Assembly (NCBI GenBank): GCA_002328565.1
Contig: DCUU01000020.1
Coordinates: forward strand, 1 to 61,255
Source of the DNA: Candidatus Moranbacteria bacterium UBA2206
GTDB taxonomy: Bacteria > Patescibacteriota > Minisyncoccia > Moranbacterales > UBA2206
Length of the DNA: 61,255 bases
Direction: 5' to 3'
Shown: positions 44,672 to 51,437 of the stretch, piece by piece
Position numbering within the stretch: the first letter of the stretch is position 1
Layout of the letters: each line of letters opens with the position of its first letter
Notes under the pieces: generated by a model
What the model was told of the DNA's origin: nothing
The model's database searches: none
The model's input: only the letters and a program-made list of their open reading frames with translations
Position numbers and translations under genes: made by a program

Positions 44672-46012
44672 ATGGCTAAAGTTAAAAAAAATAAGAAAAA
44701 AATCTTGAAAAATAAAAAAACTTCGAAGAAAATCAAGGTGAACCCGAAGAAGAATAAAAAGAAAAATCTTTCTGGAAAAAAGAAAGTTGTTTTTAAGAAG
44801 GCTAAAAAAAAGACTAAAATAGCGCCAAAAAAGAAGATTGAGAAAAAAAAGCCAGCCAAGAAAAAGGTCGTCAAGCAGATTTCCAAGAGGATGGAAGAAA
44901 AAAATTCCCAAAGACGTGGGGATATTGACGAATTGGTTTATCGCGGAAAACAAAGAGGATTTATCACTGAAGATGAGATCTTGCATGTAATTCCAGATGC
45001 AGAGAGGGATATTGAAAAATTGGAAGAACTCTATGAAAAATTAGAAAGCAAGAATATTCGAGTGGTTAATTCCGATGAAATGATTCGCATGGAAACAGAT
45101 AGGGTTTCTGAAGATTTTGACAAGCAGAAAACCGGCAAGAAAAAAACAAGAAAAGAAATGATGGATGTCGGTCCAGAAGAAGCTTCTTCGGATTTAGTAC
45201 AGATGTATCTTCGAGAAATTGGTCGAGTGGATCTTTTGAATACGGAAGAAGAAATAAGTTTAGCCAAAAGAATTGAAAAGGGTGATGCGATGGCCAAGCA
45301 AAGACTAACCGAAGCTAATCTTCGACTTGTGGTGAGTATCGCCAAAAAATATGTTGGTCGTTCACATAATCTTTCGCTTTTGGATTTGATTCAAGAAGGT
45401 AATATTGGACTTTTTCGCGCAGTGGAAAAATTTGACTATCGAAAAGGCTATAAATTTTCTACTTATGCAACTTGGTGGATTCGTCAAGCCGTCACTCGCG
45501 CACTAGCTGATCAATCTAGAACAATTCGTATTCCGGTGCATATGGTGGAAACGATTAATAAATATACGCAAATTACCAGAAGACTAGTGCAAGATCTTGG
45601 GCGTGAACCACTTCCGGAAGAAATTGCAGTAGAGATGGGAATAGAGGTGGACAAAATTCGCCACATCCAAAAAATTTCTCAAGAAACAGTTTCTTTGGAA
45701 ACTTCTGTCGGAGACTCTGACGACGACAGTGTACTTGGAGATTTCATTGAAGACACGGAAACAGTGATGCCCAATCAAATTGCCAGCCGAAAAATGCTCA
45801 AAGAACATGTGGTGGAAATTCTAAGAGACCTCACACCAAGAGAGCAAAAAATTCTGAAAATTCGTTTTGGTCTGGAGGATGGTGTAACTCATACCCTAGA
45901 AGAGGTGGGGCAGGAGTTTGGCGTGACTCGCGAACGAATCCGACAGATTGAAGCCAAGGCGCTGGAAAAAATTCGTGAACATAAAACTATCAAGAAACTT
46001 CGAGATTACTAA
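44672..46012 (+). CDS. rpoD: Primary RNA polymerase sigma factor with a poly-lysine N-terminal extension
   Basis: Region 2 ([36 protein letters not shown]), region 3 and region 4 ([20 protein letters not shown]). Confidence 0.96.
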
Positions 46013-46016
46013 AAAC

Positions 46017-46064
46017 GATGCTAATCTAGGAATAAATGCCAATCTACTAATTGCGAATAATATG
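46017..46064. repeat. 48-nt dispersed repeat, intergenic copy (pairs with the polA copy at 3728-3775)
   Basis: gatgctaatctaggaataaatgccaatctactaattgcgaataatatg. Confidence 0.8.
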
Positions 46065-46085
46065 AAGTTATCCACAGCTTCGGAT

Positions 46086-46113
46086 TTGACAAAAAAAATA
46101 GGTATGCTAAATT
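46086..46113 (+). promoter_or_regulatory. Promoter of small-ORF unit 1
   Basis: TTGACA (46086-46091), 16 nt, TAAATT (46108-46113), then 6 nt and the ATG. Confidence 0.55.
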
Positions 46114-46119
46114 AGTCTT

Positions 46120-46218
46120 ATGAAAAACATGCAAACTAAAATATCATTTATATTGTCTGTGATTATTTTGCTGGTCTTTGAGACCGGCCTTGGTTTACGT
46201 GAAATGAAAAAAGCATAA
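46120..46218 (+). CDS. Small apparently leaderless ORF 1 (32 aa, Ile/Leu/Val-rich): MKNMQTKISFILSVIILLVFETGLGLREMKKA
   Basis: The ATG lies 6 nt after the -10 box and there is no SD. It is paralogous in architecture and 3' sequence to 47194-47289. It is below the ORF-track length cut-off. Confidence 0.4.
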   Translation: MKNMQTKISFILSVIILLVFETGLGLREMKKA

Positions 46219-46245
46219 GGAAAAAAATCATTTCAAATAAATCAA

Positions 46246-46275
46246 GACCGATCTCTTCAAAAGGACCGGTTTTTT
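46246..46275 (+). terminator. Intrinsic terminator of unit 1 (candidate attenuator)
   Basis: ccgatct cttcaaa aggaccgg followed by tttttt. The 5' arm can alternatively pair with gagaccgg at 46180-46187, inside the small ORF. Confidence 0.55.
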
Positions 46276-46383
46276 AGTTCTTTAAAACAAAACTAGCAGT
46301 CAAAACAATAATTTTGCGAGAACTCGAAATTATTGGTTTGGCTGTTAGATGAAAATAAACAAAAATATTATACGGGAGGGAGT

Positions 46384-46590
46384 ATGGATATAATTGTTAT
46401 AAGACCCATAGCAACTATGGGTGAAGAAAAAGCAATAGTTTCTCCAGGGGAATATAAATTGGTGTTAGTTTATATAGTAAAAGAAGGAAGAGATCTATTT
46501 TTCTTTCTTGGGCTAGAGGGCATCTGCGTTGGAGTGACTATGTTATGTATAATGGAAAAAATTGGTCTGATAAAAATAAAAAAACAGTAA
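46384..46590 (+). CDS. Hypothetical small protein (68 aa) with a hydrophobic C-terminal half
   Basis: RBS gggaggga 5 nt before the ATG at 46384. The track ORF 46333..46590 starts upstream at a non-ATG codon. Confidence 0.45.
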   Translation: MDIIVIRPIATMGEEKAIVSPGEYKLVLVYIVKEGRDLFFFLGLEGICVGVTMLCIMEKIGLIKIKKQ

Positions 46591-46604
46591 GGTAAGGAGA
46601 AAAA

Positions 46605-46781
46605 ATGGATAACGATAAAGAAAAAAATATTATTCCAGATAAATCTGAAAAACCCCAGCCGTTCACGCAGATAATCTCTGCGCCGCCAATTGATTTGTCA
46701 GAGGCAATATTAAGGGCGGGGCTCGAAAAAAACAAGGGAATTCCAGTTACAGAAATTTTAACGGTTTATAAGAAATTATAA
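46605..46781 (+). CDS. Hypothetical small protein (58 aa)
   Basis: RBS aaggaga 6 nt before the ATG. Hand-translated as MDNDKEKNIIPDKSEKPQPF...TVYKKL. Not in the ORF track because it is under 60 aa. Confidence 0.4.
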   Translation: MDNDKEKNIIPDKSEKPQPFTQIISAPPIDLSEAILRAGLEKNKGIPVTEILTVYKKL

Positions 46782-46921
46782 AAAACTCTGTGCTACGGCA
46801 ATAGGGCTCGTAGTGTCCCGATACCCGGGTCTCCTTATTCTAGTTACTGGATACCCCATAACTAGAAAGTTAGGAAAGGCAGTGTTGAACAATTAGAGTA
46901 GTATAGGAGGGAGGTGAAAGT

Positions 46922-47071
46922 ATGGCGGAGGAAGATAACGCTCCGAGAGAGCAGTTATCATCCGCAGTTCTTCCTGATTGTAAAAAAGATCAACAACAAT
47001 CGCAAGGATGGGTTGGTCAAGGAGGATACGATCCGGATGACTGTGGAGATAATTTTATCGGTAGCCGATGA
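46922..47071 (+). CDS. Hypothetical small acidic/Gln-rich protein (49 aa)
   Basis: Strong RBS ggagggagg with 7-nt spacing to the ATG. Hand-translated as MAEEDNAPREQLSSAVLPDCKKDQQQSQGWVGQGGYDPDDCGDNFIGSR. It competes with the track ORF 46914..47162 in another frame. Confidence 0.35.
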   Translation: MAEEDNAPREQLSSAVLPDCKKDQQQSQGWVGQGGYDPDDCGDNFIGSR

Positions 47072-47158
47072 TAAATCATTTAGGCTATCGTGGGGAGAGC
47101 AGATGATTTCATCTGCTTCTCCTCAAACTCTAAAAATAAAGTCAGTTTTTATATATAG

Positions 47159-47187
47159 TTGACAAAAAAAATAGAAGGCGCTAAGAT
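47159..47187 (+). promoter_or_regulatory. Promoter of small-ORF unit 2
   Basis: TTGACA (47159-47164), 17 nt, TAAGAT (47182-47187), then 6 nt and the ATG. Confidence 0.55.
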
Positions 47188-47193
47188 AGCAAT

Positions 47194-47289
47194 ATGTTAA
47201 AACAACCTAGTCAAAAATTTTATAGCTTTTCTTACTTTTATTTCTGGTTTAGCCAGATCGGTTTTGTTTTGCATAAAATGAAAGCATAA
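47194..47289 (+). CDS. Small apparently leaderless ORF 2 (31 aa, aromatic-rich): MLKQPSQKFYSFSYFYFWFSQIGFVLHKMKA
   Basis: The ATG lies 6 nt after the -10 box. Nine of residues 9-19 are Phe, Tyr or Trp. A terminator follows. It lies upstream of the Phe/Tyr biosynthesis genes. Confidence 0.45.
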   Translation: MLKQPSQKFYSFSYFYFWFSQIGFVLHKMKA

Positions 47290-47316
47290 AAGACATATTC
47301 ATTTTAGATAAGCCAA

Positions 47317-47345
47317 AGCCGATCTCACGCGAGACCGGTTTTTTT
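47317..47345 (+). terminator. Intrinsic terminator of unit 2 (candidate attenuator)
   Basis: ccgatctc acgc gagaccgg followed by ttttttt. The 5' arm is perfectly complementary to agatcgg at 47255-47261, inside the small ORF. Confidence 0.6.
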
Positions 47346-47473
47346 GTTCTTTGAAACTGTTTTTTGGAGTTTTGATGGTTAAAATAATAATTTTATTTTT
47401 ATCTAGAATTTTTATTTTAACTATCAACACTAACCAACAAAAAACAAACAACAAGAAAGAGAGGAATTAAATT

Positions 47474-47869
47474 ATGAAAAAAGTAAATTTTACCGGCAGA
47501 AAAAGTCTTCCTGTTGATTTCGCTCAAATGACCGTGAATGATCTCGCATTGGCTCTGGAAATCATTAATAGTTTTTATGAAGATGCAGAGAAAAAAGACA
47601 GGGTCATTCAGCGCGATTTCAAGAAAGTCACTGTTCCCCTTAAGCTTCTCGCAAAAGTTTTTGGGGTGGAGTATTCAATAAATATTTCCAGAACAACAGA
47701 AATCGAAAAAACGCTTTCTGAAATTATGGAAAATATTAATGCTCTGTGTGATTTCGAGGAAACTTTTTTTCAAAGAATAAAAGAAAGTTTCCAAAAATCA
47801 GAAAAAAAACCCAAAACAAGAAAGATAGGTTTGGTCGAAAGAAAAGCTGGCGTTTACGTGGCTGGCTAA
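47474..47869 (+). CDS. Hypothetical protein (131 aa)
   Basis: RBS agagagga before the ATG. It is followed by a 9-bp stem (caatggcag/ctgccattg) with no T-run. No family recognised. Confidence 0.5.
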   Translation: MKKVNFTGRKSLPVDFAQMTVNDLALALEIINSFYEDAEKKDRVIQRDFKKVTVPLKLLAKVFGVEYSINISRTTEIEKTLSEIMENINALCDFEETFFQRIKESFQKSEKKPKTRKIGLVERKAGVYVAG

Positions 47870-47973
47870 GCAACTCTTTCTTGAAGCAATGGCAGACGGT
47901 AACACCCGCCTGCCATTGCCTCAAACTATTAAAATTGATAAACTTTAAATATTACTAAAAATAAATCAAACTT

Positions 47974-48549
47974 ATGTCTCAAAAAATTAAAATCGGTGTT
48001 TCGGGGAATCGAGGAAGTTTCTCGGAAGAAGCGGCTAATTATTATTGCGGAAAAAACAGCATAAATGAATACGAACTTTCCTATCTGACTAGTGTGGAAA
48101 ATGTTCTCTCGACATTGGACGAAGGAAAAATTGACAAGGGAGTTTTCCCAATTGAAAATTCTAATGGTGGAATTGTGATTGAGGCAGTGCAGGCTATGTC
48201 AAAACATATTTTCAACATTGAAAAAATGTTTGAAATAGACATCCGAATGAATTTGATGGCGAAAAAAGACATAAAATTAGAGGATATAAAAAAGATAACT
48301 TCTCATCAACAAGCGCTCAGACAATGTCGAATGTATCTCAAGCGAAAATGGCCGGAAGCAGAACTTTCTGAATATTGCGACACCGCTAGCGCAGCCAAAG
48401 ATTTGAGTGAGGGAACTTTGCCAGAAAATTCCGCGGTTATCGCTCCGAGAGTTTGCTCTGAGTTATATAATCTCGAACTCCTAGAAGAGGGGATCCAAGA
48501 TCTAAAGTTTAATTTTACAACTTTTATTGTGGCTGTTAAGGTTAAATAA
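47974..48549 (+). CDS. pheA: Prephenate dehydratase, catalytic domain only (no ACT domain)
   Basis: GNRGSFSEEAA, FPIENSNGGIV, SHQQALRQC and NFTTFIV match PDT-domain blocks. At 191 aa there is no room for an ACT domain. Confidence 0.8.
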   Translation: MSQKIKIGVSGNRGSFSEEAANYYCGKNSINEYELSYLTSVENVLSTLDEGKIDKGVFPIENSNGGIVIEAVQAMSKHIFNIEKMFEIDIRMNLMAKKDIKLEDIKKITSHQQALRQCRMYLKRKWPEAELSEYCDTASAAKDLSEGTLPENSAVIAPRVCSELYNLELLEEGIQDLKFNFTTFIVAVKVK

Positions 48550-48737
48550 AAGATTAAAAAATTTAATACTTATAGGACTTACGCATTTGCTCACGTCAAG
48601 ATATGCTCGTCGCAAAAGCAACTATGAAATTCAACAATTCGCCAGTAATTAAAAATTATTTAAAATAGAATATTTTCCTGGCGACTGCGTTAATATCTTT
48701 TCCGTAATCAAATGTGTGAGTCCTGAGTTATATTTTT

Positions 48738-49763
48738 ATGAAATCAAAGAAGAAAATTTGCATAGTGGGTCTTGGGCGTTTCGGGACGCTCATTGCTTCG
48801 ATTTTGAAAAAAGATTTTGAAGTTTCTGCGATAGTCAGTGATGCGAAAAAATATTCTGAAAAAGCAAAAAATTTAGGAATAAAAATCATAGACAAAGAAG
48901 ATTTGAAAAATTTTGACATCATCATTCTTTGCCCACCAATTTCAAAAACCGAACAAATAATCCAAGAAATTGGGCCACTCCTAAAAGAAAAATCAATGCT
49001 GGTTGACACTTGCTCAGTCAAAACTCTGCCTTGTCAGTGGATGAAAAAGCATGTGCCAAAAAACATTGAAATTTTAGGAACGCATCCAATGTTTGGGCCG
49101 GTGACGACAAAATTTAGCTTTGAAAAACAAACTTGGAAATTGGATGGCCTTCAGATTGTTCTTTGCCCTTTGAGAATAAATCAAAAAAGATTAGAAAGCA
49201 TAAGGAAATTTTTGAAAAAACTAAAATTGAAAGTGATTGAAACTACTCCCAAAGAGCATGACCGACAAAACGCCAAAACTTTGGCACTAGTGCATTTTCT
49301 AGGCCGAGCTTTGGTGGCTTCTGGTGTCAAAGAACAAGAAATTTTCACTCCGGGATATACTGATCTTTTGAAAATTATTCCTCACACCGCCAGCGACAAC
49401 TGGCAACTTTTTTTTGATATGAATAATTTCAATCCATTTTCCGAGAAGATTAGAAAAGATTTTTTGAGAAGTTGCCATAATTTGGATTTTAAGATTGCGG
49501 CTTCAGTTGGAGAGGATGAGCTGGAATCATCTAGAAATATAATTGATTCAGTTGATGAAAAGATATTTGAGCTTCTCAAAATTCGTTTTGGGGAAGTTGA
49601 GAAAATTGGAAAGATAAAAAAGAAAAGCGGAAAAAATGTTCGAGATATGGAAAGAGAAGAGAGAATTATTGAAAATAAAGTTAAAAAATTTAAAATGGAT
49701 AAAGAATTAGTGGAAAATATTTACAAAGCTATTTTTAATCATTCATATAAAATTCAAAAATGA
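48738..49763 (+). CDS. tyrA: Prephenate dehydrogenase fused to a C-terminal chorismate mutase (type II) domain
   Basis: ICIVGLGRFGTLIA Rossmann motif, GTHPMFGP, and the C-terminal IDSVDEKIFELLKIRF...RDMEREERIIE CM-like helices. Confidence 0.8.
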   Translation: MKSKKKICIVGLGRFGTLIASILKKDFEVSAIVSDAKKYSEKAKNLGIKIIDKEDLKNFDIIILCPPISKTEQIIQEIGPLLKEKSMLVDTCSVKTLPCQWMKKHVPKNIEILGTHPMFGPVTTKFSFEKQTWKLDGLQIVLCPLRINQKRLESIRKFLKKLKLKVIETTPKEHDRQNAKTLALVHFLGRALVASGVKEQEIFTPGYTDLLKIIPHTASDNWQLFFDMNNFNPFSEKIRKDFLRSCHNLDFKIAASVGEDELESSRNIIDSVDEKIFELLKIRFGEVEKIGKIKKKSGKNVRDMEREERIIENKVKKFKMDKELVENIYKAIFNHSYKIQK

Positions 49764-50863
49764 TACTCTCAAAAAGAATTCAAAAAATTGAAAGCTCGGG
49801 AATCAGAAAAGTTTTTGATTTAGCCGCCAAGAACAAGGGAAAATATGTGAATTTTTCTATTGGCCAACCGCATTTTGAGACACCGAAAAAACTTAAGATT
49901 TCAGCGCAAAAAGCTATTTCAGATAATTGCAATGCTTATACTCCAACCAAAGGAATCTTGAAACTCCGAGAAGAAATTTCTGAGAACCTCAAAAAAACAC
50001 GAAAAATCAAAGCTAATCCAGAAAATATTATTGTCACTGCCGGAACTTCTGGGGCGATTTTCTTGCTTTTTTCTTCAATTTTTGACCCAGGAGATGAAGT
50101 GATTTTGCCAGATCCATATTTTGTGATGTACCAACAAATGTTGAATTTTTTAGGAGTGAAGATAAAATACCTTGATACTTATCCAGACTTTCATATAAAT
50201 TCGAAAAAACTGGAAAAATTAATTAACAAAAAAACTAAAGCAATAGTTCTCAATTCTCCTAATAATCCAACCGGGGCAGTTTATACTAAAAGTGAAATTA
50301 AAAATATAGTCGAAGTTGCCAAGAAGAATGATGTATTAATTATTTCTGATGAAATTTATGACGCATATAATTATGATCAAAATTTTTTTTCGCCCGCTTC
50401 AATTTATGCAAAAACAATAATTCTCAGTGGTTTCTCTAAGAGTCACTCGATCACTGGTTGGAGAATAGGATATGCCTATGCATCAAATGAAATCATTGAA
50501 GCGATGAATAAGTTGCAACAATATACTTTCGTCTGCGCGCCTTCCTTTGCGCAATTTGCAATGCTGGGTAATATTGATTCAATTCCAAAAAATGAAATTG
50601 CAAATTACAAGAATAAAAGAAATTTTGTATATGAAAATCTCAAAGATTTATATGAAATAAATATGCCCGAAGGCGCTTTCTATGCTTTCATAAAAATTCC
50701 AAAAGATCAGAAAAATTTCCTCGAAAAACTTTTGAAAAATAATCTGCTGGTTGTGCCAGGGGAAGTTTTTTCTCAGAAAAAAGGCTACTTCCGAATCTCT
50801 TTTGCCGTGCCAGATTCAGAATTGAAAAAGGGGATAGACATTCTTAAAAAAGCAATTGCCTAA
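49760..50863 (+). CDS. Class I/II pyridoxal-phosphate aminotransferase (aspartate/aromatic type)
   Basis: NSPNNPTG, and SGFSKSHSITGWRIGY with the PLP lysine. Its start overlaps the tyrA stop by 4 nt. Confidence 0.88.
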   Translation: MILSKRIQKIESSGIRKVFDLAAKNKGKYVNFSIGQPHFETPKKLKISAQKAISDNCNAYTPTKGILKLREEISENLKKTRKIKANPENIIVTAGTSGAIFLLFSSIFDPGDEVILPDPYFVMYQQMLNFLGVKIKYLDTYPDFHINSKKLEKLINKKTKAIVLNSPNNPTGAVYTKSEIKNIVEVAKKNDVLIISDEIYDAYNYDQNFFSPASIYAKTIILSGFSKSHSITGWRIGYAYASNEIIEAMNKLQQYTFVCAPSFAQFAMLGNIDSIPKNEIANYKNKRNFVYENLKDLYEINMPEGAFYAFIKIPKDQKNFLEKLLKNNLLVVPGEVFSQKKGYFRISFAVPDSELKKGIDILKKAIA

Positions 50864-50904: not shown

Positions 50905-50937
50905 AATAAAACCTTCTTGTTGGAGGTTTTATTTTTT
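50905..50937 (+). terminator. Intrinsic terminator of the aromatic operon
   Basis: aaaaccttc ttgtt ggaggtttt followed by a T-run. Confidence 0.7.
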
Positions 50938-50943
50938 AAAAAT

Positions 50944-51058
50944 TGTCATTCTGAGCGAAGCCGAAGAATCTACTAAATAATAATTCTAGTAATAATAAAC
51001 AGCAGATCCTTCGACTACGTTCTGACGTTAAAACGCCATCACTCCGCTCAGGATGACA
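50944..51058. repeat. MITE-like element copy E (115 nt, intergenic, just upstream of the cop promoter)
   Basis: tgtcattctgagcg ... cgctcaggatgaca, a terminal inverted repeat of about 14 nt. Confidence 0.85.
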
Positions 51059-51078
51059 ACTATGGGAGATTGAAATAT

Positions 51079-51106
51079 TTGACAACTTTCGAGAGTAGTA
51101 TATGAT
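51079..51106 (+). promoter_or_regulatory. Promoter of the csoR-copA operon
   Basis: TTGACA (51079-51084), 16 nt, TATGAT (51101-51106). Confidence 0.6.
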
Positions 51107-51107
51107 G

Positions 51108-51124
51108 TACCTAGGGGGGAGGTA
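51108..51124. promoter_or_regulatory. Candidate CsoR operator (G-tract-centred inverted repeat)
   Basis: TACCT-AGGGGGG-AGGTA lies immediately after the -10 box. It resembles the GC-centred pseudo-palindromes bound by CsoR-family repressors. Confidence 0.5.
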
Positions 51125-51170
51125 TGTATAAAATTTTTAATTTTTAATTTACAATTTTTAAACTACAAAT

Positions 51171-51437
51171 ATGGAAGAGAATAAAAACACAATAACAGCC
51201 TTAAAAAAGGCGCATAGCCATTTGGGCAATGTGATAAAAATGGCGGAGGAAAAAGAGTATTGCATTGATATTTTGCAACAGAATTTAGCAGTAATGGGAC
51301 TTTTGAAATCAGCTAATTCAAAAATATTAGAAGGACATCTAAATTCTTGTTTTCAAAATGCTATGCGCGGAACTAATGAAAAAAGAAAAAAAGAAATGAT
51401 TGAAGAGATTTTGGTAATTAATAAGTTGAGTAAATAA
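51171..51437 (+). CDS. csoR: CsoR/RcnR-family metal-sensing transcriptional repressor
   Basis: 88 aa. LKKAHSHLGNVIKMAEEKEYCIDILQQ...LEGHLNSC shows DUF156 topology with Cys and His ligand positions. Confidence 0.8.
   Translation: MEENKNTITALKKAHSHLGNVIKMAEEKEYCIDILQQNLAVMGLLKSANSKILEGHLNSCFQNAMRGTNEKRKKEMIEEILVINKLSK

Follow-up and report, generated by a model that had tools for sequence, protein, structure and literature searches.

Two paralogous short units were identified on the forward strand of contig DCUU01000020.1 of Candidatus Moranbacteria bacterium UBA2206, of which the whole stretch of 61,255 nt (hereafter the window) was analysed. Each unit consists of a promoter, a mini open reading frame (ORF) and a terminator. 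Unit 1 lies between rpoD and a cassette of small genes, and unit 2 lies between this cassette and an apparent operon that contains genes for prephenate dehydratase, prephenate dehydrogenase with chorismate mutase, and an aminotransferase. In the first-pass annotation of this DNA, both units had been read as translation-coupled attenuators. The analysis below makes it probable that both are leader-peptide (ribosome-mediated) transcription attenuators. The units, their promoters and their leader ORFs are located as follows.

46086–46275, forward strand: unit 1 (promoter, mini-ORF, terminator)
46086..46113, forward strand: unit 1 promoter, TTGACA, 16-nt spacer, TG-extended TAAATT (promoter scan)
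46120..46218, forward strand: unit 1 leader ORF, 32 codons plus stop, peptide MKNMQTKISFILSVIILLVFETGLGLREMKKA
47159–47345, forward strand: unit 2 (promoter, mini-ORF, terminator)
47159..47187, forward strand: unit 2 promoter, TTGACA, 17-nt spacer, TAAGAT (promoter scan)
47194..47289, forward strand: unit 2 leader ORF, 31 codons plus stop, peptide MLKQPSQKFYSFSYFYFWFSQIGFVLHKMKA

The two promoters scored alike in the promoter scan (10/12). The 16-mer TTGACAAAAAAAATAG, with which both units begin, is present in exactly two copies in the 61-kb window, at 46086 and 47159; when three mismatches were allowed, its matches in the window were no commoner than expected by chance. In both units the ATG follows the −10 box by 6 nt and no Shine-Dalgarno sequence is present, so the ORFs are predicted to be leaderless. 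Nine of residues 9–19 of the unit 2 peptide are Phe, Tyr or Trp. End-to-end alignment of unit 1 with unit 2 gave 76% column identity and spanned the 3′ untranslated region, the ccgatctc...gaccgg motif with its T-run, and GTTCTTT(A/G)AAAC beyond the T-run. Both RNAs fold more stably than dinucleotide shuffles (z = −4.9 for unit 1 and −3.1 for unit 2). The shared design that the first-pass annotation had described (promoter, ATG 6 nt past the −10 box, ORF of 31–32 codons, U-tract terminator, and sequence conserved past the stop codon) was therefore found in full. Its two pairing segments, gagaccgg at 46180–46187 and agatcgg at 47255–47261, both pair with the terminator 5′ arm CCGATCTC, and the peptide classes it had assigned, Ile/Leu/Val-rich for unit 1 and aromatic-rich for unit 2, are kept in orthologs.

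Related loci were collected by looking up exact matches to the unit-1 peptide and to RpoD homologs, by scanning metagenome contigs for the terminator motif as a DNA pattern, and by blastn and nhmmer across all collected sequences. This gave 33 distinct unit sequences (15 unit-1, 18 unit-2) from more than 15 Moranbacteria genomes, which split into close unit-1, divergent unit-1 and unit-2 groups. The gene upstream of unit 1 is rpoD, and the closest homologs of the RpoD protein belong to Candidatus Moranbacteria/Moraniibacteriota, members of the candidate phyla radiation (CPR). A distant genome, L214 (RpoD 86% identical), has both units. A contig scan with RpoD was dominated by universal sigma-70 matches and gave one close genome, L010 (RpoD 85% identical). 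In L010 no units were found after rpoD, where a plain terminator and a large NTPase-like gene stand instead, indicating that the units are not universal even among Moranbacteria. The order of unit 1, small-gene cassette and unit 2 is invariant. Across genomes the units share 84–97% nucleotide identity; the cassette genes share about 50% or are wholly replaced. The −35 box TTGACA was kept in 26 of 30 orthologous or paralogous units, and the ATG is invariant while its distance from the −10 box varies from 6 nt to about 20 nt. The unit-1 peptide was annotated as a gene once (exact look-up), and neither the unit-1 nor the unit-2 peptide was present in the protein cluster table.

The reading frame is open in all 33 distinct copies, with indels exclusively in multiples of three; the two alternative frames are never open and carry 1.7–4.3 stops on average. 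The candidate explanation of chance ORFs in U-rich RNA was ruled out by this frame conservation. The ratio of nonsynonymous to synonymous divergence (dN/dS), summed over pairs, was about 0.55 over the whole unit 1 ORF, a weak constraint at the amino-acid level; for the N-terminal part of unit 2 it was 0.26. In unit 2, synonymous divergence (dS) was 0.12 in the structured 3′ half versus 0.9 in the N-terminal part, and this collapse indicates that selection in the structured half acts on the RNA. In the hydrophobic stretch, the amino-acid class is what is conserved. Residues 8–21 hold a median of 9 Ile/Leu/Val (range 5–10) and 2 aromatic residues in unit 1, and a median of 8.5 aromatic residues and 1 Ile/Leu/Val in unit 2. 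Enrichment of aromatic codons was seen in all 18 unit-2 orthologs (7–10 aromatic residues each), and no loss of the run, an outcome that the first-pass annotation had named as contrary to its reading, was encountered.

The folding of the RNAs was then considered. Four mutually complementary segments are predicted, of which segments 1 and 2 would lie in codons 17–23 and segments 3 and 4 just before the U-tract. These allow three overlapping hairpins, P1 (1:2), P2 (2:3) and P3 (3:4).

46170..46188, forward strand: unit 1 P1 (segments 1:2, anti-antiterminator), GCUGGUCU-UUG-AGACCGGC, −11.8 kcal/mol
46181..46254, forward strand: unit 1 P2 (segments 2:3 plus apical stem, antiterminator), −22.5 kcal/mol
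46248..46275, forward strand: unit 1 terminator, segment 3 CCGAUCUC, segment 4 GGACCGG (46260–46269 including the AAAGG extension), U6 at 46270–46275
47243..47257, forward strand: unit 2 P1, UCUGGU-UUA-GCCAGA, −6.8 kcal/mol
47255..47325, forward strand: unit 2 P2 (antiterminator), AGAUCGGUUUUG with CAAAGCCGAUCU, then the apical stem, −24.2 kcal/mol
47319..47345, forward strand: unit 2 terminator P3, CCGAUCUC-ACGC-GAGACCGG, U7 at 47339–47345, −7.5 kcal/mol

The stop codons of unit 1 (46216–46218) and unit 2 (47287–47289) lie within the P2 apical loop, and the P2 3′ arm of unit 1 is the terminator 5′ arm. Unit 1 has only a weak local P3 (−4.2 kcal/mol), and its segment 1 can alternatively pair long-range with segment 4; the helix next to the U-tract in the free RNA is therefore predicted to be the 1:4 pairing. 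Because segments 1 and 4 are complementary, the free RNA of the window units would form a rod ending at the U-tract. In the folds predicted for both RNAs, the ATG and the rest of the first 50 nt remain unpaired.

Local folding of representatives showed the overlapping P1/P2/P3 layout in 9 of 9 lineages, with energies of −6 to −12 kcal/mol for P1, −22 to −34 kcal/mol for P2 and −4 to −10 kcal/mol for P3. In each of the nine lineages P1 lies inside the ORF, the P2 5′ arm overlaps the P1 3′ arm, the P2 3′ arm is the complete terminator 5′ arm, the stop codon is in the P2 apical loop, and P3 abuts the U-tract. The helices themselves differ in sequence. P1 arms are GCUGGUCU/AGACCGGC, GUCUUGAU/AUCAAGGC, AUCUGGA/UCCAGGU or UCUGGU/GCCAGA, and P3 arms are CCGAUCUC/GAGACCGG in unit 2, and CUGGUCUC/GAGAUCAG, CCGGUCUC/GAGCCGG and CCGAUCC/GGAUCGG in unit 1 of L214, L175 and L168, respectively. 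These differences across lineages indicate that the topology is maintained by compensating change. Among unit 2 orthologs the basal segments are invariant and covariation is confined to the apical stem, and for this reason RNAalifold on unit 2 alone gave little covariation; the informative covariation is that between subfamilies.

In order to follow the folds during translation, the A site was moved codon by codon and the bases from −15 to +12 nt around it were kept from pairing (an assumed footprint, at equilibrium), and the pairing probability of the last four bases before the U-tract was taken as readout. The regulatory codons below were assigned from the resulting partition-function profiles.

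46159..46173, forward strand: unit 1 regulatory codons V14 I15 I16 L17 L18
47233..47247, forward strand: unit 2 regulatory codons Y14 F15 Y16 F17 W18

In both window units, terminator pairing was 0.99 in most states and was reduced only when the A site was at codons 14–18, to 0.0–0.6 in unit 1 and to 0.2–0.5 in unit 2. Nearly all 33 copies behaved in the same manner. Pairing was mostly 0.9–0.99 (0.6–0.9 in a few units) in the free RNA and with the ribosome at early codons or at the stop codon, and it dipped to 0–0.4 (up to about 0.6 in a few, with some dips shallow) only when the A site was at codons 14–19 or thereabouts. The codons at the dip are for branched-chain amino acids in unit 1 and aromatic in unit 2; in divergent unit 1 they read F15 I I S V L I21. 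Minimum-energy structures showed why pairing is lost there: with segment 1 covered by the ribosome, segments 2 and 3 pair with each other and segment 4 stays single-stranded. When the upstream part was dinucleotide-shuffled and the terminator was kept, the dip was reproduced in 0–1 of 60 shuffles (0/60 for unit 2). Among the checks that the first-pass annotation had proposed for its reading were folding of both units with the segment masked by a ribosome and covariation in related genomes, and both came out in its favour.

The genes following the two units are listed below.

46384–46590, forward strand: gene A, 68 aa, presumed to be under unit 1 control
46605–46781, forward strand: gene B, 58 aa, presumed to be under unit 1 control
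46922–47071, forward strand: gene C, 49 aa, presumed to be under unit 1 control
47474–47869, forward strand: ORFan D1, first gene of the apparent unit 2 operon
47974–48549, forward strand: prephenate dehydratase (NCBIfam/Pfam matches)
48738–49763, forward strand: prephenate dehydrogenase plus chorismate mutase (NCBIfam/Pfam matches)
49760–50863, forward strand: aminotransferase (NCBIfam/Pfam matches); apparent operon 47474..50863
50908..50937, forward strand: intrinsic terminator after the aminotransferase, AACCUUC-UUGUU-GGAGGUU with a U-rich tail, likely, as read from the sequence, the end of the unit 2 transcription unit

At every locus with data, the gene next to a unit is on the same strand at a distance of 35–158 nt, with a GGAGG-type Shine-Dalgarno sequence before it. 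Promoter-like matches are rare in the gap between unit and next gene, and in the window none was found between unit 1 and gene A. From unit 2 to 50908 there is no terminator, and the internal gaps contain no strong promoter; the unit 2 promoter therefore appears to drive D1, the dehydratase, the dehydrogenase/mutase and the aminotransferase. The same aromatic genes (dehydratase, dehydrogenase/mutase where present, and aminotransferase) follow unit 2 in the window, in L005, L114, L152 and L215 and in the distant L214, and an aminotransferase follows it in L151. Counted over the related genomes, about 7 of about 15 have aromatic genes after unit 2.

Genes A, B and C have GGAGG-type Shine-Dalgarno sequences and are fast-evolving. 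A fast-evolving family of small proteins (motif PPGxY...FFFL) is encoded after unit 1 in every case, together with other ORFans. No Pfam match was obtained for the 141-aa gene A homologue of L005, for D1 or for seven other flanking proteins; the exceptions among flanking proteins were the aminotransferase and an M28 peptidase in L151. Homolog searches with D1 and with window gene A returned only the queries themselves, and a single-sequence AlphaFold model of D1 (predicted local distance difference test score 44) was unusable. The cassette at 46384–47071 is hypervariable between close relatives: where three small genes stand here, L005 has a 141-aa gene, L002 a Cys-rich 53-aa gene and L151 the M28 peptidase gene. 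Only the first cassette gene family (PPGxY...FFFL) recurs among relatives. An integron-like or MITE-like (miniature inverted-repeat transposable element) mobile cassette bounded by the units was also considered and rejected. No integrase was found, two copies are present per locus in fixed order and orientation, and each copy has a promoter and an ORF.

Some further features of this region were recorded. Downstream of rpoD (46013–46085) there is no terminator belonging to that gene. Since the first one to follow is found in unit 1, the dnaG-rpoD transcript probably ends there as well. No recognisable Shine-Dalgarno sequence precedes the starts of the dehydratase (47955–47976) and the dehydrogenase/mutase (48720–48740), although the neighbouring ORFans have GGAGG. 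The prephenate dehydratase is only 191 aa long and has no ACT regulatory domain. Between D1 and the dehydratase, a hairpin of 10 bp with a 14-nt loop and no U-tract is present at 47887–47920 (GCAATGGCAG...CTGCCATTGC). A MITE-like inverted repeat (TGTCATTCTGAGCGAAGCCGAAGAATC ... CGCTCAGGATGACA) occupies about 50944–51066, between the aminotransferase terminator and the promoter of a csoR-like gene, and related palindromes adjoin units in L096, L125 and L179. The csoR region, 51079–51170, shows an 11/12 promoter (TTGACA-16-TATGAT) followed by a strong Shine-Dalgarno sequence GGGGGGAGG, and a 7-codon mini-ORF, MYKIFNF (ATG at 51126), stands just 5′ of the csoR-like gene at 51171.

A second long hairpin, here called HP2, is found past each terminator.

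46293..46348, forward strand: HP2 after unit 1, stem of about 22 bp, no U-tract, within the read-through leader of the next gene
47372..47427, forward strand: HP2 after unit 2, long hairpin 3′ of the terminator

HP2 is a nearly perfect stem of 20–28 bp without a U-tract, about 15–25 nt past each terminator. Its size and position are kept in nearly all lineages, and its sequences are unrelated between lineages and between units. It was seen after units in L001, L002, L005, L009, L095, L125, L175, L207, L209 and others. HP2 may serve as an RNase III site, or as a 5′ hairpin that stabilises the read-through mRNA.

Two additional unit types were found in relatives.

L096 2479–2650 (reverse-strand coordinates) and L125 325–492: third unit, leaderless
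L175 5515–5680 and L179 2026–2190 (reverse-strand coordinates): fourth unit, leaderless, MLKNIQNNLAQLLLQNSPIRRLF or MQNIQNNQSQLLLQNPPIRRLF

In the divergent clade, unit 1 is preceded not by rpoD but by a gene for citramalate synthase (TIGR00977, 746 bits versus a cut-off of 450). Isoleucine synthesis by the pyruvate route begins with this enzyme. The third unit precedes this gene in L096 and L125, the two contigs reaching far enough. It has TTGACA-17-TAAACT, an ATG 6 nt later, an Ile-rich ORF of 27 codons (MQKIARKIFEIISIVIIRRQFFVRVYA or MQKIVKKIIGFISIVIIRRKFFTLVCA) and the terminator CCCGG-CGGAA-CCGGG-U6, and the last codons of the ORF are able to pair with the terminator 5′ arm. Because an Ile-rich unit precedes the first step of this route, a second, independent match between leader codons and pathway is suggested. 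A MITE-like palindrome is inserted between the third unit and the citramalate synthase gene. The fourth unit, with the pattern M..IQNN..QLLLQN.PIRRLF and its Leu triplet, lies within the cassette and precedes a further gene of the PxGxY small-protein family; its modelled switch behaviour was less clear. The sequence GTTCTTT(A/G)AAA(C), which stands directly 3′ of the U-tract (46277–46288 and 47346–47357 in the window), recurs in unit 1, in unit 2 and in the Leu-triplet unit (L175/L179) despite divergence elsewhere.

From the observed sequence features, conservation, alternative pairings and equilibrium folding behaviour, we infer how transcription start, leaderless translation, ribosome stalling, read-through and a physiological signal would be connected in the units. 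The near-consensus sigma-70 promoter would start transcription at or very near the ATG, and the short ORF would for this reason be translated as a leaderless mRNA. As long as segment 1 is unmasked, P1 (1:2) and the terminator P3 (3:4) would form, or, in the window units, an alternative rod made of the 1:4 and 2:3 pairings, with its basal helix next to the U-tract; in both cases transcription would stop after about 150 nt. When charged tRNA is scarce, the leading ribosome would stall at codons 14–18 (Val/Ile/Leu in unit 1; Tyr/Phe/Trp in unit 2) and cover segment 1. Segment 2 would then pair with segment 3 in the long antiterminator P2, leaving segment 4 without a partner, and RNA polymerase would continue across HP2 into the downstream genes with their Shine-Dalgarno sequences. 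Scarcity of aromatic amino acids would thus raise D1, prephenate dehydratase, dehydrogenase/chorismate mutase and aminotransferase through unit 2, and scarcity of branched-chain amino acids would raise the three small ORFan proteins through unit 1.

The attenuator reading is favoured by frame conservation, the overlap topology, the placement of the codon runs, the promoter-less downstream genes and the two matches of peptide composition with a pathway, which together, as sequence and model evidence, argue for it. On the other hand, several points weigh against it. The downstream genes of unit 1 are ORFans without a link to branched-chain amino acids. Aromatic genes are absent after unit 2 in L002, L009, L095, L097, L207/L210, L209 and others, where unit 2 is followed by one small ORFan, belonging to at least three unrelated families. 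The first-pass annotation's claim of Phe/Tyr genes downstream of unit 2 therefore applies to the window and to about half of the relatives; this patchy link could be explained by loss of the dehydratase–aminotransferase block in some lineages, with the first gene left in place. Some unit-2 orthologs have a leader of 14–20 nt without a Shine-Dalgarno sequence, and two have no promoter. To our knowledge, leaderless translation has not been demonstrated in CPR bacteria. The rod abutting the U-tract means that the units could be constitutively terminated small transcripts. The C-terminal motif G-[FL]-G-[LF]-x-K-M is common to unit-1 and unit-2 peptides and, together with the N-terminal dN/dS of unit 2, makes a function of the peptide itself possible. 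Rfam searches gave no leader family, neither at the gathering score over the whole window nor at E ≤ 10 over 45950–47500; the only matches were a tRNA and chance microRNA-like ones. Finally, the reading is based on sequence analysis and on equilibrium folding with an assumed footprint. As to the earlier proposal of a translation-coupled attenuator, frame conservation, topology, masking folds and promoter-poor gaps uphold it as a predicted switch; unit 1, however, precedes ORFans and no ilv/leu genes.

Several of these points would be accommodated if the units were independent genes for small hydrophobic or aromatic peptides, acting at a membrane or interface, each with its own promoter and with the downstream genes expressed separately; the unusually long rod-shaped terminator would then also stabilise the short mRNA. 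The ORF and its start codon are always conserved, the paralogs have a motif in common and unit 2 is constrained in its N-terminal part, the units persist where no amino-acid genes follow, and the free RNA forms a stable rod up to the U-tract. By the Kyte-Doolittle 19-residue mean, for which about 1.6 or more was taken to mark a membrane span, the unit 1 peptide resembles a transmembrane helix (2.3; range 1.63–2.39), but that of unit 2 is too polar (0.79; range 0.58–1.22). The membrane role that the first-pass annotation had offered as an alternative thus fits unit 1 and not unit 2. Moreover, unit 1 is weakly constrained as a protein, and the conserved codons at the C-terminal end overlap the P2 stem, a region of frozen synonymous sites. 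Peptide genes would not need P1 or the exact P2/P3 overlap, yet nine lineages have preserved both while the sequences changed; the mostly promoter-less downstream genes also argue against separate expression, and the match of peptide composition to the downstream pathway is left unexplained. Independent peptide genes are therefore considered unlikely. The other half of the same earlier alternative, type I toxins, in which membrane-damaging peptides are held by antisense RNA, fared worse. Size and layout (polar N-terminus, hydrophobic core, basic C-terminus) are like those of Fst, TisB or Ldr-type peptides, and the mRNA is highly structured. However, the start codon lies unsequestered at the unstructured 5′ end behind a near-consensus promoter, so that translation would be unrestrained. 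There is also no credible antisense promoter (the best minus-strand match in the promoter scan was GTGAGA-16-TAAAAT, 9/12), the units are always sense-oriented upstream of genes, and unit 2 does not encode a hydrophobic peptide. A toxin function can hardly be credited.

The function might instead reside in the structured RNA of about 150 nt, the units being small RNA (sRNA) genes or combined operon terminators and sRNAs in which the ORF is incidental or secondary, comparable to attenuator-derived sRNAs such as rnTrpL. Unit 1, for which a role in terminating the dnaG-rpoD operon was noted above, would suit such a combination since rpoD has no terminator of its own before it. The extreme nucleotide conservation of the structured 3′ half and the covarying apical stem point in the same direction, and trans-acting attenuator RNAs are known (PMC6614838). 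A non-coding RNA would not be expected to keep 33 of 33 frames open with in-frame indels only while the other frames carry stops, nor would its unstructured 5′ half keep an amino-acid class while the nucleotides change; no Rfam family was matched either, and a trans role would supplement attenuation, not replace it. An sRNA role in place of attenuation is thus improbable, more so than the peptide-gene explanation. A dual role, with the attenuator also yielding an active peptide or sRNA, is compatible with the attenuator reading, and the trpL attenuator of Sinorhizobium is a precedent for such a dual role (PMC6614838, PMC7298713).

Beyond the two units themselves, we tentatively put forward a wider interpretation, possible though clearly less secure than attenuation by each unit. 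All unit types would form a modular family of paralogous leaderless attenuators on one RNA scaffold, amounting to a ribosome-directed starvation regulon. Only the codon run would be swapped: Ile in the third unit (u0), Ile/Leu/Val in unit 1 (u1), the Leu triplet in the fourth unit (u3) and Phe/Tyr/Trp in unit 2 (u2). Such a regulon would control retained genes of amino-acid salvage or biosynthesis, namely citramalate synthase and the prephenate dehydratase, dehydrogenase/chorismate mutase and aminotransferase set. It would likewise control hypervariable ORFan small proteins, which may act in a host-dependent lifestyle. The conserved double-stranded hairpin HP2 would serve in processing or stabilising the mRNA made by read-through. 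Such a regulon, if real, would be the first regulatory RNA system to be defined in CPR bacteria, and evidence of tight coupling between their transcription and translation.

The genomes of CPR/Patescibacteria are tiny, with few genes for recognisable regulators and a very limited biosynthetic capacity. Nutrient sensing in these bacteria is poorly understood, and the units bear on that gap. If the attenuator reading is true, charged-tRNA pools in CPR bacteria would be monitored by the ribosome itself, transcription and translation would be coupled, leaderless initiation would be used, and a first regulatory RNA mechanism would be defined for this group. The units would also mark fast-evolving ORFans as starvation-induced, giving a first functional clue to them. 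Being short, self-contained and portable, they are amenable to surrogate hosts or cell-free systems without cultivation.

The principle proposed here is textbook. The unusual traits are the leaderless long ORFs, the stop codon in the antiterminator loop and a scaffold reused with different codon runs, together with the conserved post-terminator hairpin and the ORFan targets. The classical amino-acid attenuators of enterobacteria are the pheA leader pheL, the ilvGMEDA leader ilvL, and trpL, hisL, leuL and thrL. Like these, the units have a promoter-proximal short ORF with a run of codons for the amino acids that would be regulated, and overlapping hairpins 1:2, 2:3 and 3:4 before a U-tract. A stalled ribosome would likewise free segment 2 for the antiterminator, and termination would be the default without translation. 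Sensing would be multivalent, for Ile/Leu/Val as in ilvL and for aromatic residues as in pheL. Unlike the enterobacterial attenuators, the units have ORFs that are leaderless, without a Shine-Dalgarno sequence, and long (31–36 codons), and their stop codon is in the antiterminator apical loop, not between segments 1 and 2. The helix at the U-tract of the window units can be a long-range 1:4 pairing, a second long hairpin is conserved past the terminator, no Rfam leader family is matched, the host is a CPR bacterium, and one unit would control ORFans only. Type I toxin mRNAs of the Fst, TisB or Ldr type are also short structured RNAs with a small ORF and a hydrophobic core; the units differ from them in having no antisense partner, a free start codon, a unit 2 peptide that is not hydrophobic, and a constant sense position upstream of genes.

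The first-pass annotation had regarded amino-acid attenuators as classically proteobacterial and their presence in a CPR-like genome as new. Our literature search found no paper linking CPR/Patescibacteria with attenuation or leader peptides. The premise was too narrow and the novelty overstated, since attenuators have been predicted in Actinobacteria and leaderless sensing ORFs described in mycobacteria. In Actinobacteria, leader-peptide attenuators were predicted for trp, ilvB, trpS and leuS (Seliverstov et al. 2005, PMC1262725). As with the units, these are leader peptides with terminators outside Proteobacteria that were found by comparative genomics; their sequences are unrelated and the phylum is another, whereas the units here form a paralogous family on one scaffold. 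In mycobacteria, leaderless polycysteine short-ORF attenuators were reported (Canestrari et al., bioRxiv 10.1101/834739). As far as the account in that preprint goes, they resemble the units in being leaderless, in standing at the 5′ end of an operon, in using an amino-acid run that makes the ribosome a sensor, and in occurring as several units per genome, which gives a ribosome-directed regulon. According to the same account, the mycobacterial ORFs act on translation by unmasking a downstream ribosome-binding site, whereas the units here carry an intrinsic terminator and concern other amino acids. The trpL attenuator of Sinorhizobium, finally, gives rise to the trans-acting sRNA rnTrpL and the peptide peTrpL (PMC6614838, PMC7298713). 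No trans target is known or predicted for the units, in which they differ from this system; that a terminated RNA and a leader peptide have extra functions there offers a possible reason why the units persist without cognate genes.

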